From the IMG/VR virus record IMGVR_UViG_3300037419_001092: a stretch of DNA of 37,865 bases; one strand, given 5' to 3'. Below, one piece after another: positions 22,870-24,886 of the stretch. A program made the translations under genes and the position numbers. The notes under the pieces were generated by a model. That model made no database searches, was not told where the DNA came from, and worked only from the letters and a program-made list of their open reading frames with translations. Numbering within the stretch: the stretch's first letter is position 1; each line of letters begins with the position of its first letter. The stretch comes from a virus.

Positions 22870-23028
22870 TAAGGCTGCAACTTCACCTGATTGAGTTATG
22901 GCTCAACCGCACCGTATAAATCTCTTTGTTCTACCTCTGTTGTAAGCCGGTACATCATACCGTTGGCTGCTCATCTGTTGAGGAGAACGCCAGCTTTTTA
23001 AGGGCTGGTCTGATGTCGATTATCAGAT

Positions 23029-23054
23029 TTCGTAAATCCTAGTCTCGGCATCAG
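23029..23054 (+). repeat. 26-nt leader repeat, copy A (TTCGTAAATCCTAGTCTCGGCATCAG), preceded by a -10-like GATTAT
   Basis: 23/26 identical to 23331..23356. GATTAT at 23018..23023. Local hairpin AGTCT (23041..23045) / AGACT (23053..23057). Confidence 0.7.
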
Positions 23055-23119
23055 ACTTATACTAAAAAGTCCGGGGTGGAAATCCCGAACCGTATCTGTT
23101 ATGCTAGATGACGATGTAC

Positions 23120-23191
23120 GCCATCTTAGCTCAGGGGTAGAGCACTTCCATGGTAAGGAAGGGGTTCTGACCTCTGTACGGTCGAGTTTTC
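23120..23191 (+). pseudogene. tRNA-Thr(GGU)-like 5' two-thirds (acceptor 5' strand, D-arm, anticodon arm) with a degenerate T-arm and non-pairing 3' strand
   Basis: GCCATCT-TA-GCTC-AGGGGTA-GAGC-A-CTTCC-ATGGTAA-GGAAG is canonical. After 23161 the T-loop is TCTGTAC and only 4 of 7 acceptor pairs form. Confidence 0.6.
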
Positions 23192-23294
23192 CGAGTGCTA
23201 AGCTTTTAAGGCAACGATTGAAGCGTAATGCTTAATTGTTACTCATCAGTATAGAGCATAAGCGCACTATTGTCAACATATATTGTTAATATGC

Positions 23295-23323
23295 TTGAAC
23301 AAATTACGAAAGTTTGCTATTAT
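23295..23323 (+). promoter_or_regulatory. sigma70-type promoter of the small RNA
   Basis: TTGAAC (23295..23300), 17-nt spacer, TATTAT (23318..23323). Confidence 0.65.
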
Positions 23324-23329
23324 ATAAGT

Positions 23330-23409
23330 ATTCGTAAATCCTAATCTCGGTGTCAGTGTATAGCCTGATGCTGAGATCTCGGCAGAAGGCTCCCTCGGGG
23401 GCCTTTTTT
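23330..23409 (+). ncRNA. ~80-nt small RNA: leader repeat copy B, 13-bp hairpin, intrinsic terminator
   Basis: Hairpin 23344..23356 / 23365..23377 (13 bp including 3 G-U pairs that exist only in the plus-strand RNA). Terminator stem 23386..23393 / 23398..23405 with a CTCG loop and T6. No ORF. Confidence 0.65.
23386..23409 (+). terminator. rho-independent terminator of the small RNA
   Basis: AAGGCTCC-CTCG-GGGGCCTT followed by TTTT. Confidence 0.7.
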
Positions 23410-23481
23410 CGTACTCACACAGTCTTATTAAAAACTTATCAACCAGGCCGCAGCAGACGGCCATAGTTTGTGTGTAGTAGT

Positions 23482-23646
23482 GAGATGGTGTCAGAGAGCG
23501 AGTATAAACGTGTGGGTGAAATAAAATACTAGTTACCCAGGTTTAATGATGAAGCAGAGTCGCTAATGCCTCGACCGTCTATGCTCTGTACTGGCGACGG
23601 ATAGCCCATAGTACAGCGCGCTCAGGTTCGAATCCTGGCCATCTCT
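23482..23646 (+). ncRNA. tRNA-like module: canonical T-arm plus 7-bp acceptor-type helix bracketing a ~130-nt insert (or an attP tRNA 3' fragment)
   Basis: T-arm TCAGG-TTCGAAT-CCTGG (23622..23638). CCATCTC (23639..23645) pairs with GAGATGG (23482..23488). Internal 7-bp hairpin CTGTACT/AGTACAG (23586..23592 / 23610..23616). No D-arm or anticodon arm is recognisable. Confidence 0.4.
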
Positions 23647-23671
23647 CTCATACACATAAACATCTGCAATA

Positions 23672-24544
23672 CATTAAGACAGTAACAGTACTCCTTAAGA
23701 GTAGCTTGAGGGTAGTAGTGCTAGTAGTAACAAGCCTGGCGGTCATCGACTTTTGGGCTGAACCGAGTCCAGGAAAGCCCCGTGCTACTAGCTCTCATAC
23801 CCTTAAGAGTTCACTTATGAGACTTTGGGTCCTTTTATAAGGCTTAGGGAGTGTTACAGCGATAGTAAGTTACGCCTAAACGAATAACTATCACCCAGAG
23901 CGTGTTTAGTGATAGGTTTACTGTCGTTAGCTGGTAGGGGCGTCAGCCTGTACGACCTCTGGTGACAAGTCGTAACTACCAGCGCTGTTACTGTCTTAAT
24001 GAGTATTACTTCGACTACAGGGCCACTGGGTAACAGGCTATAAAGGTTGAGGTCAGTTTGTCGGGACTCTCTATGCGTAATGGCGAGAGATAGATACACA
24101 GATCTGGGAAGAATCCGAAAGGAGCGTCCCGGCGGCATCTGACTTTAACTGGTTGCCCCATAGACGCCTTGTAGTTGAGGGTAGAAGTGATACTGAGGTA
24201 GTGGTACATATGAAAAGCTAGACTGAGGGGTTGCGATATCCTCCAGACGAGTGTTTTAGGATCACTGAGTTGGACACAAACAACATAACAAATACCTAGC
24301 TATGTATGAAAAGACGGTAGCAGTAGACTAGCGCCTTAGAGACGTTGCTTCATGGTTGATAAGTCATCTTATGAGGGTAACCGTGAACAGTCAACAAAGA
24401 CTGAGCGGTATGGAGAGTTAGTGCTTAAAATACTAAGTCTTCATCATATCACATAGCAGACTAGCTAAGATATGAGCAAATCTACAATATGCAGAACCTA
24501 AAACTAGGCGTATATATAAGAATATAAGCAGGAGGATATTGCAG
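23672..24544 (+). ncRNA. candidate large structured RNA (several domains; boundaries uncertain, may extend to ~24860)
   Basis: Perfect 17-bp helix 23672..23688 / 23985..24001 encloses nested hairpins: 23860..23868/23918..23926, 23888..23894/23909..23915, 23930..23937/23976..23983, 23951..23956/23969..23974. Stacked helices 24045..24056/24139..24150 and 24058..24067/24126..24135. UCC-GAAA-GGA tetraloop hairpin at 24114..24123. 14-bp helix 24231..24244/24531..24544. Wobbles are G-T on the plus strand only. No ORF with an RBS. Confidence 0.45.
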
Positions 24545-24754
24545 GAATAGTGACCGGAGCACCGCACCTTATGAGGCCAAGACTCCCTACGTTATTAATG
24601 TAATGTACTCCATCAAATAAAAATCTATTGTCAAAACATAATCTAAGCGAGATAATGAGAACGCAACGGGAAGCTTAAGCGACCTAGACTCTCTGCAGGG
24701 GGAAGTCCGGCTAACATAGTCTGTACCCTGTTAAATCTCTATAAGGAAGGCATT

Positions 24755-24886
24755 ATGGTGAGAACCAAAAATGTCTGTGGCTGCCCCCATCTCTGGGTCT
24801 GGATAAACTTCAAGAGAGAACAGCACACAGACAGTATTAGTGTACTCCTCTTTCTGTTCGACATGAAGGTGAACTATGTCAATTAG
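24755..24886 (+). CDS. 43-aa mini-ORF just upstream of and overlapping the int start (very tentative)
   Basis: AAGGAAGG SD 4 nt before ATG 24755. Hand translation MVRTKNVCGCPHLWVWINFKREQHTDSISVLLFLFDMKVNYVN. No recognisable Xis-like pattern. Confidence 0.2.
   Translation: MVRTKNVCGCPHLWVWINFKREQHTDSISVLLFLFDMKVNYVN

Follow-up and report, generated by a model that had tools for sequence, protein, structure and literature searches.

The subject of this study is a 2.0-kb stretch without recognisable open reading frames (ORFs) in IMG/VR virus record IMGVR_UViG_3300037419_001092, a complete metagenomic contig of 37,865 nt (the window) from a tailed double-stranded DNA phage that encodes a large terminase, a major head protein, a single-stranded DNA-binding protein (SSB) and a DNA polymerase exonuclease subunit. 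The stretch, referred to below as the island, occupies positions 22870-24875. Its boundaries are exact: at the left a transglycosylase ORF on the minus strand (22324-22869), at the right the ATG at 24876 of a plus-strand gene (24876-25706) for a 276-aa Xer-like tyrosine integrase without an arm-binding domain. We show that the plus strand of this island carries a new conserved family of structured RNA, situated in the lysogeny region of the phage with the attachment site (attP) beside it in the same island.

An earlier description of the window, made from the letters alone (the sequence-only reading), had reported a 2.0-kb ORF-free island directly upstream of and co-oriented with the integrase gene, holding only short minus-strand ORFs of 60-94 aa. 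The island is real. The longest ORFs in it are minus-strand ones of 94, 64 and 63 aa. With codon log-odds learned from 15 long genes of the window, even the best frame scored below zero in every 180-nt segment of the island (mean -6.3, against a genome-wide mean of +7.9), and searches of five island ORFs of 43-94 aa against Pfam and PHROGs gave no match even at E<=1. The source gene calls, from the JGI metagenome record (3300037418), leave the island empty, yet call genes of 29-80 aa elsewhere. Missing annotation apart, nothing favours the idea that this is a decayed or recoded protein-coding region; it is opposed by the negative codon scores in all frames, by the lack of protein-family matches and by homologues that differ by insertions and deletions of hundreds of nucleotides while retaining their base pairing, and we regard it as next to negligible. 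The island is made up of several adjacent features and is not one 2-kb RNA: attP, a divergent pair of predicted promoters, a leader with a predicted terminator, the structured RNA, and a predicted promoter and the 5' untranslated region (UTR) belonging to the integrase gene.

Comparison of the island by BLAST with the loci of integrase relatives gave a single 37-nt match, at 24330-24366. One such locus, L018 (loci are designated by L numbers), is laid out as the window is, with a promoter, a short hairpin, a terminator, the motif UAAAAAC, a 12-nt strand and, later, the complement of that strand. An exact scan with the 20-mer GCGCCTTAGAGACGTTGCTT, which we call block B2, reached 3 IMG/VR, 10 metagenome and 2 genome loci, and an nhmmer profile added L031-L033, which are divergent in B2; the matches in L039 and L044 (Magnetospirillum) were discarded as chance for want of a second block, B1. 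With duplicates counted once, the family has 12 distinct members. A 12-bp closing helix, P1, is present in every one of them, varying in sequence while its pairing is kept, and the P1-to-P1 sizes are 290 (L035), 346, 396, 427, 434, 487, 488, 578, 611 and 940 nt, the last being the window copy, which its large expansions bring to ~940 nt.

A covariance model built from our alignment (A2, below) recovers all members, with scores of 96-233 bits; the large insertions split the window match in two. Model R1 matches window 24000-24339 in two pieces as well, 24000-24191 at 54 bits and the other at 27 bits. In 372 kb of related loci the covariance model found nothing beyond the members. Searches of IMG/VR with the integrase retrieved no relative, and with the transglycosylase one contig, which ends at the island; twelve loci reached through the exonuclease (32-47% identity) have neither island nor RNA. 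A hairpin-pattern scan of IMG/VR gave 0 matches, a pattern spanning B1 and helix P10 returned only the known locus L024, and five matches to a 19-mer from P1/P2 were rejected by the model as chance. BLAST against the GenBank phage collection yielded only tRNA-like matches of 40-48 nt.

The plus strand of 23425-24375 has a minimum free energy (MFE) of -345.5 kcal/mol, where dinucleotide shuffles give -283 +/- 8 (z = -7.8); the corresponding figures for the minus strand are -288.3 kcal/mol and z = -5.5, and a 600-nt coding control gave z = -0.85. The long-range nested helices seen by the sequence-only reading are there, as nested inverted repeats that include one perfect 17-bp pair (23672-23688/23985-24001). 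For covariation we used alignment A2, of 11 members and 345 columns, from which low-occupancy insertion columns and the variable element P3 had been removed before realignment. The first structure drawn on it had 95.0% of cells paired and double changes at 25 of 49 pairs. An independent run of RNAalifold recovers P1, P2, P5, P6, P8 and P10, and offers for the conserved blocks an alternative in which CUUC/GAGG lengthens P5 into one long arm and the 3' half of B2 (GUUGCUUC) is the partner of B1 (GAAGUGAU), beside P10 (CUAAGG/CCUUAG). This arrangement, being better supported, replaced our first pairing of B1 with AUCACUUC; B1 pairs perfectly with this 5'-side AUCACUUC, which may represent an alternative conformation.

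In the final structure 97.1% of cells are paired (81.3% in shuffled alignments), 30 of the 54 pairs are changed on both sides (14.2 in shuffled alignments), and the covariation score is 0.489 (0.173 when shuffled); none of 500 shuffles reached any of the five measures used, and sliding the partner strands by 1-3 columns left 37-46% of cells paired. L031, a member not found through B2, carries compensatory changes both in P10 (CCAAGG/CCUUGG) and in B1:B2. The helices of the first structure contain 39 G·U cells and 3 A·C cells, a ratio that fixes the plus strand as the one transcribed. The regions of P7 and P9 align poorly.

The window RNA, which we term class 1, runs on the plus strand, like all its parts, from the conserved UAAAA of its 5' flank to the end of the 3' strand of P1 (23429-24364; ~940 nt), and so bears out the sequence-only suggestion of a new large structured RNA. 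We define the family by a P1-closed core, P2, a P4-P5-P6 arm and a 3' domain closed by B1:B2 and P10, upstream of a tyrosine integrase; every helix can be located in the window, where P1 and P2 were checked by pairing, and the integrase gene follows at 24876. P1 (23434-23445/24353-24364) is a helix of 12 bp in which 9 of 12 pairs show compensatory changes among the 11 aligned members. Inside it lies a conserved core of ~290 nt that comprises P2, the long arm and the 3' domain with its two nearly invariant paired blocks. P2 is a hairpin, GGCCG/CGGCC, followed by a conserved AUAGUU (23446-23462; 5/5 pairs compensatory). The arm P4-P5-P6 (24009-24180), matched by model R1, consists of P4 (24009-24012/24177-24180) and P5 (24014-24021/24168-24175), with compensatory changes at 8 of their 12 pairs together, and P6 (24028-24034/24152-24158; 3/7), whose loop in the window has received a window-specific hairpin (24035-24151). 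The 3' domain (24184-24351) contains P8 (24250-24266) and is closed by B1:B2 (24184-24191 with 24344-24351) and by P10, here CUGAGG at 24193-24198 with CCUUAG at 24334-24339.

Two expansions lie between P2 and the arm. The P3 expansion (23466-23661; z = -3.5) is closed by GUUUGUGUGUAG.../...CAUACACAUAAAC, a module that recurs in L040, L042 and L038. Within it, at 23625-23635, stands the T-arm-like string GGTTCGAATCC, beside a possible 7-bp acceptor-like helix (23482-23488/23639-23645). The sequence-only reading counted two tRNA-derived pieces in the island; one is the attP fragment described below, and the other was this string, which is not demonstrably tRNA-derived: ARAGORN and Rfam make no call on it, it is unformed in the MFE structure, and the other members examined by eye do not have it. 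The second expansion (23665-24004; z = -6.9), closed by the perfect 17-bp helix, is an inserted domain specific to the window. It aligns over its full length with a free-standing noncoding region upstream of the integrase gene in L017 (score 64, shuffles 38 +/- 6), and the window RNA therefore looks composite. The motif UGAGGGUA occurs three times in the window RNA (23707, 24176 and 24372) and again in the differing noncoding regions of L017, L025 and L026, there beside UAAAAAC, the motif found on the 5' flank of the class-1 RNA.

At gathering score no RNA family of Rfam 15 was matched in the whole window; at E<=10 over 22500-25200 only the tRNA fragment and terminator-like matches appeared, and six homologous loci gave none at E<=1. 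These negatives cover GOLLD, ROOL, OLE, HEARO, tmRNA, RNase P, and group I and II introns, and literature searches did not turn up this RNA. A tmRNA was considered and rejected, as neither ARAGORN nor Rfam reports one and the T-arm-like string is internal and unformed in the MFE structure; a group I or II intron was set aside for the lack of an Rfam match and for its noncoding flanks. The family is new to Rfam 15, and its structure is clear and supported by covariation.

GOLLD and ROOL are large RNAs of unknown function often found in prophages near tRNAs, ROOL averaging 581 nt with six junctions and three pseudoknots (PMC5737381), and both build RNA-only homo-oligomeric assemblies (PMC12286853). 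The window RNA shares with them its size, its multi-domain, structured and noncoding character, its carriage by a temperate phage or prophage, its nearness to tRNA-related sequence, and the combination of a conserved core with variable peripheral domains. It differs in matching neither covariance model, in keeping with the inability of the sequence-only reading to recognise either family by eye; in being strictly linked to and co-oriented with an integrase gene; in hosts that appear to be Patescibacteria; and, relative to ROOL, in a smaller core of ~290 nt with one main junction. The GOLLD/ROOL-like tRNA context proposed earlier holds as far as nearness goes, but it is owed to attP, the tRNA sequence in the window being an attP fragment and not a tRNA gene. 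On these comparisons the RNA appears to resemble GOLLD and ROOL in kind only.

Upstream of the RNA, the plus strand presents what looks like a transcription unit. A scan for promoter-like sites found 7, against 4.0 +/- 2.0 expected, so that the count is not above chance, but the positions recur in homologues. The leader promoter-like site, TTGAAC-17-TATTAT (23295-23323, plus strand), lies ~139 nt upstream of P1, and sites 110-140 nt 5' of P1 are found in the window, L035 (11/12 consensus positions), L042 (12/12) and L036. The predicted leader (23330-23412, plus) contains a hairpin (23346-23356/23365-23375) and an overlapping alternative hairpin (23362-23391), and reaches past a putative intrinsic terminator, GGCTCCC-TCG-GGGGCC+T6 (23388-23409, plus). 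This is the clean terminator of the sequence-only reading: it was read from the sequence, the terminator stems of two Rfam models align there, and our terminator scan did not list it. By eye, a hairpin resembling a terminator precedes P1 by 15-45 nt in ~8/10 members.

Between the RNA and the integrase gene, the second plus-strand promoter-like element announced by the sequence-only reading, TTGTCA-17-GATAAT (24628-24656), is the likely integrase promoter; such sites separate RNA and integrase gene in five members (window, L018, L035, L042 and L043), and the RNA-integrase spacers measure 170-600 nt. It is followed by a conserved element of the integrase 5' UTR, UAGACU...GGGGGAAGUCCGG...CCCUG (24685-24730, plus), which could fold as an H-type pseudoknot and is kept in L025 (4812-4867) and L026 (4797-4850), both without class-1 RNA. 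Two independent short-read contigs, 100% identical to the integrase region, both stop at window position 24580, directly after the 12-nt repeat ACCGCACC(G/T)TAT (24561-24572; other copy 22906-22917), a repeat at chance level by our own estimate; the shared break may mark a boundary of strain differences upstream of the integrase gene.

The 3' tail of the RNA (24373-24456, plus) begins with GAGGGUA and continues with the hairpin P11 (24380-24409), a Shine-Dalgarno (SD)-like GGAGAG (24412-24417) and a GTG mini-ORF of 11 codons (24421-24456). An SD-like motif (GGGGAG/GGAGAG) with a start codon 3-10 nt on is present in 9 of 11 members, against 4.3 expected (a post hoc test, p ~0.004). The mini-ORFs, of 2-13 codons, occupy equivalent positions in the window, L035, L045, L040, L042, L022, L036, L018 and L043, and in L043 the SD-like site opens an HNH endonuclease gene. 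With the constant integrase linkage, this tail keeps alive the reading of the RNA as a giant cis-regulatory leader of the integrase gene or of the downstream mini-ORF, in which the folded domain would respond to a signal by adjusting read-through or translation, using the upstream terminator and a 3' hairpin that would partly sequester the SD-like motif. The attenuator-like alternation of leader hairpins and terminator would suit such a device, as would P11, which overlaps the GGGGAG motif, and the invariable position of the RNA immediately upstream of and co-oriented with the integrase gene. It fits poorly with the promoter-like sites between RNA and integrase, with mini-ORFs conserved in neither length nor sequence, with a terminator that precedes the structured domain rather than following it, and with expansions of 300-650 nt and P3-internal ORFs, which would be unusual in an expression platform. 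On balance we consider a cis-regulatory leader unlikely, though deserving of serious attention.

The left part of the island holds attP. Positions 23120-23165 (plus strand) correspond to the 5' two-thirds of a tRNA-Thr(GGU), from the acceptor 5' strand through the D and anticodon arms into the variable loop (GCCATCT-TA-GCTC-AGGGGTA-GAGC-A-CTTCC-ATGGTAA-GGAAG-GGGT). The assignment draws on a partial Rfam tRNA match at 23129-23161 (model positions 10-42 only), on BLAST matches of the piece to tRNA-Thr in phage records and on a core common to relatives. A complete tRNA gene was rejected: ARAGORN finds no tRNA in the window, the Rfam match is partial, and the sequence past the core is not a T arm. 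The 18-nt shared core CCATGGTAAGGAAGGGGT (23148-23165, plus) is exact in the fetched close integrase relatives compared, a set that excluded L049 and L050, apart from L017 (1 mismatch) and L040 and L045 (slightly diverged). It lies downstream of the integrase gene in L018, L025, L029, L040 and L045, and upstream of it on the other strand in L031, L046 and L047. Where the flanks were read (L018, L040 and L045), the core runs on into a T arm, an AGATGGC-type acceptor strand and CCA. The core marks the junction of an integrated prophage with host genes (rpmG, glycoside hydrolases) in L026 and L027, where the 3' part of the host tRNA is attached to it; in L026 the junction adjoins rpmG. Judged by these prophage/host junctions of relatives, 23120-23165 would be an attP of the kind that recombines within a tRNA gene.

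With tRNA-gene attP sites in general, the window shares this anticodon-arm core common to relatives and found at a prophage/host junction; it differs in carrying the 5' part of the tRNA. L018 (5940-6000), L040, L045 and L031 hold the core and the 3' part, as is usual when a temperate phage has its attP in a tRNA gene. The RNA-integrase module of the window is also inverted relative to the flanking genes when set against L017 and L018. Were the window attP functional, the phage would bring the 5' half of the tRNA, and so its promoter, to attR. The earlier suggestion that the RNA might be intertwined with attP holds in the sense that both are in one island, with attP 264 nt upstream of the structured RNA and outside it.

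Two further features surround the core. A promoter-like site on the minus strand, TTGACA-17-TATACT (23248-23276; 11/12 consensus), stands back to back with the leader promoter-like site and diverges from it, pointing at the early genes beyond the att core; integration would sever it from those genes, a possible built-in switch. Between the att core and the transglycosylase gene there is a terminator-like hairpin with a T-run (23068-23091, minus). The direct repeat D3 (34 nt) has one copy at 23021-23054 (plus), 28/34 nt identical to the other at 23323-23356, which is the start of the leader; the copies flank the att core at ~-100 and +175. D3 may be a binding site for a protein on DNA, or a duplicated leader start that would supply a promoter and leader for the hybrid tRNA. 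Its complementarity to the RNA is not significant (-25 to -27 kcal/mol, against -22.8 +/- 2.5 for shuffles).

This layout invites comparison with the immunity RNAs of other phages. The CI RNA of satellite phage P4 and the c4 RNA of P1/P7 are ~70-80 nt long and pair with repeated target sequences. As there, the window has a promoter-like site, a leader with a terminator and then, in the place expected for a repressor gene, a structured RNA, and the unit is divergent from a strong early promoter-like site. Unlike those systems, it has in D3 a repeat without significant complementarity to the RNA, and the unit points the same way as its flanking genes in L017 and L018.

Given the nearness of attP, the pairing might instead reflect DNA: the arm architecture of attP, or folded single-stranded DNA recognised by the recombinase, as happens at attC and at the attP of the CTX phage. 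The RNA region does lie beside attP and a gene for an Xer-like recombinase, and folded single-stranded DNA would tolerate G·T pairs too. The att core, however, lies beyond the integrase gene in L017, L018, L025, L029, L040 and L045, and in the RNA-bearing L018, L040 and L045 the RNA is ~1.1-1.2 kb away from it. Binding sites in double-stranded DNA yield neither compensatory changes nor a 39:3 excess of G·U, the promoter and terminator context points to transcription, and the phage is a tailed double-stranded DNA phage. We hold this explanation to be highly improbable.

The RNA lies upstream of and co-oriented with an Xer-like tyrosine integrase gene at every locus with enough flanking sequence. 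In nine loci the integrase gene is the next gene downstream on the same strand, in L043 an HNH gene intervenes (integrase 31% identical to that of the window), and the contig of L038 is too short to show the next gene. The linked integrases range from 100% down to 29-31% identity with the window enzyme (L035, L036 and L042). The attP of L035 is the 3' end of a different tRNA, and the linkage is therefore not tied to one att specificity.

Such persistence, down to 29% identity, raises the prospect that the RNA is a functional partner of the integrase: a guide like the IS110 bridge RNA, a scaffold or a directionality factor that would stand in for an absent arm-binding domain and excisionase. 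The enzyme, Xer-like and of two domains, lacks an arm-binding domain (closest solved structures 4a8e, 5hxy and 1a0p), none of ten small proteins from neighbouring genes was recognisable as an excisionase or repressor, and the order RNA, integrase, attP in L018, L040 and L045 mirrors xis, int, attP of lambda. The IS110 bridge RNA, the IS1111 seekRNA and the omega RNA of IscB/TnpB (HEARO) are likewise structured RNAs adjoining and co-oriented with the recombinase or nuclease gene of a mobile element; the window differs from all of these in having a tyrosine recombinase where they have a DEDD/serine or RuvC enzyme, in an RNA two to five times larger, in the lack of a guide-like att match and in conserved blocks that stay constant when att specificity changes. 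In six members the longest matches between RNA and att site, by identity or complementarity, are 6-8 nt, equal to the shuffled mean (~7), a test that could miss split guides of 4-6 nt; on this ground, and because L035 combines another attP with the same conserved blocks, a bridge or guide RNA was rejected. Eight close integrase relatives, moreover, do without the RNA, and we know of no tyrosine recombinase that uses RNA. Like the cis-regulatory reading, that of an integrase cofactor is kept alive by the linkage and the tail beyond P11, but we judge it very unlikely.

One stretch of the RNA does resemble the att tRNA. The family consensus CUAAGGAAGGG(G/A), at window 24192-24205 (ACTAAGGAAGGGGCC in L035), has 11 nt identical to positions 36-46 of tRNA-Thr, in the att core. 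The closest agreement is seen in members with integrases that recombine at a different att site (L035). As the resemblance fails to follow att specificity, we rejected a role in targeting and put the resemblance down to coincidence or shared ancestry.

Among 11 fetched close integrase relatives, three carry the RNA (L018, L031 and L045, the last reached through the B2 scan), while L017, L025, L026, L029, L046, L047, L049 and L050 do not. Most of the latter keep 1.0-1.7 kb of noncoding DNA upstream of the integrase gene (L029 ~250 nt). Six of these RNA-less regions (L017 3546-4249, L025 3936-4640, L026 3990-4560, L046, L047 and L049) were tested and fold strongly, with z from -2.2 to -11.9, and some of the RNA-less relatives share other conserved segments in the same position; one or more further RNA families may thus occupy this slot upstream of the integrase gene. 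In L026 an 18-bp helix encloses a terminator-like hairpin. An IS1595-family transposase gene lies directly downstream of the integrase gene in L031 (6002-6898) and L046 (5212-6066).

Patchy distribution among close relatives is one reason to think of a selfish or catalytic RNA, for instance a large ribozyme or an intron-like element, lodged beside integrase genes, a place where self-cleaving ribozymes often lodge. The core is closed by P1, and its peripheral loops accept ORFs: putative small ORFs (~50 and ~65 aa) are found inside the variable P3 of L022 (~5980-6140) and L036 (minus strand, within 4984-5561). HNH genes directly follow the RNA in L043 and the corresponding position in L017, otherwise classed as lacking class-1 RNA, and UAAAAAC and GAGGGUAA, which flank the class-1 element, are adjacent in the element-less L017 and L026. 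Set against this are the lack of any Rfam match to group I/II introns or to any ribozyme, surroundings that show neither exons nor an interrupted gene, a 12-bp helix between the two ends that is unlike group I/II architecture, and the failure to identify splice-site features. We rate an element of this type as quite improbable.

Our best guess is that the RNA is a stand-alone RNA of the lysogeny module. We put at roughly 0.6 the probability that the island is a temperate-phage lysogeny control region holding attP and the gene for a large, independently folding noncoding RNA not in Rfam. The RNA would be transcribed from its own predicted sigma-70-type promoter through a leader of ~100 nt with an intrinsic terminator; read-through of that terminator, or processing of the read-through transcript, would set the amount of full-length RNA, while the integrase gene would be driven by its own predicted promoter downstream. 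The RNA would then work as a stand-alone folded particle of the lysogeny module, like GOLLD and ROOL in kind, being neither a guide of the integrase nor simply its 5' UTR. We favour a stand-alone particle because the integrase has separate promoter-like sites, P1 joins both ends, and insertions of 300-650 nt are tolerated.

Several observations weigh against this reading or temper it. The promoter, terminator and RNA ends are predictions. Most members were found by an exact match to B2, whose invariance is thus partly built in, the member sample is not phylogenetically independent, and covariation was counted on an alignment trimmed of variable insertions. The RNA is absent from the eight relatives named above, most of which retain noncoding DNA in its place; with only three carriers among 11, this integrase clade therefore does not depend on it. 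A cis-regulatory role would also be compatible with the strict adjacency of RNA and integrase gene and with the SD-like motif and mini-ORF 3' of the RNA.

The host is probably a member of the Saccharibacteria/Patescibacteria, a placement that comes from relatives and not from the window itself: L045 lies on a contig of a Candidatus Saccharibacteria metagenome-assembled genome (MAG), and a related integrase, matching the L026/L027 prophage, is annotated from a Patescibacteria MAG. To our knowledge, the biology of phages of these bacteria is almost unexplored. Should the RNA prove to be an integrase partner, this would be the first tyrosine recombinase system dependent on RNA, and the slot in Patescibacteria phages would hold diverse RNAs, the structured regions of class-1-less relatives among them.

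Known large folded RNAs of bacteria and phages are rare (RNase P RNA, group I and II introns, GOLLD, ROOL and OLE) and have proved catalytic or architecturally remarkable. In the present family, core and optional parts can be told apart directly from the size range, 290-940 nt, and the minimal 290-nt RNA of L035 is a practical target for structure determination. Its persistent adjacency to an integrase gene provides a concrete and testable lead, toward recombination or lysogeny, of a kind that GOLLD and ROOL lacked.

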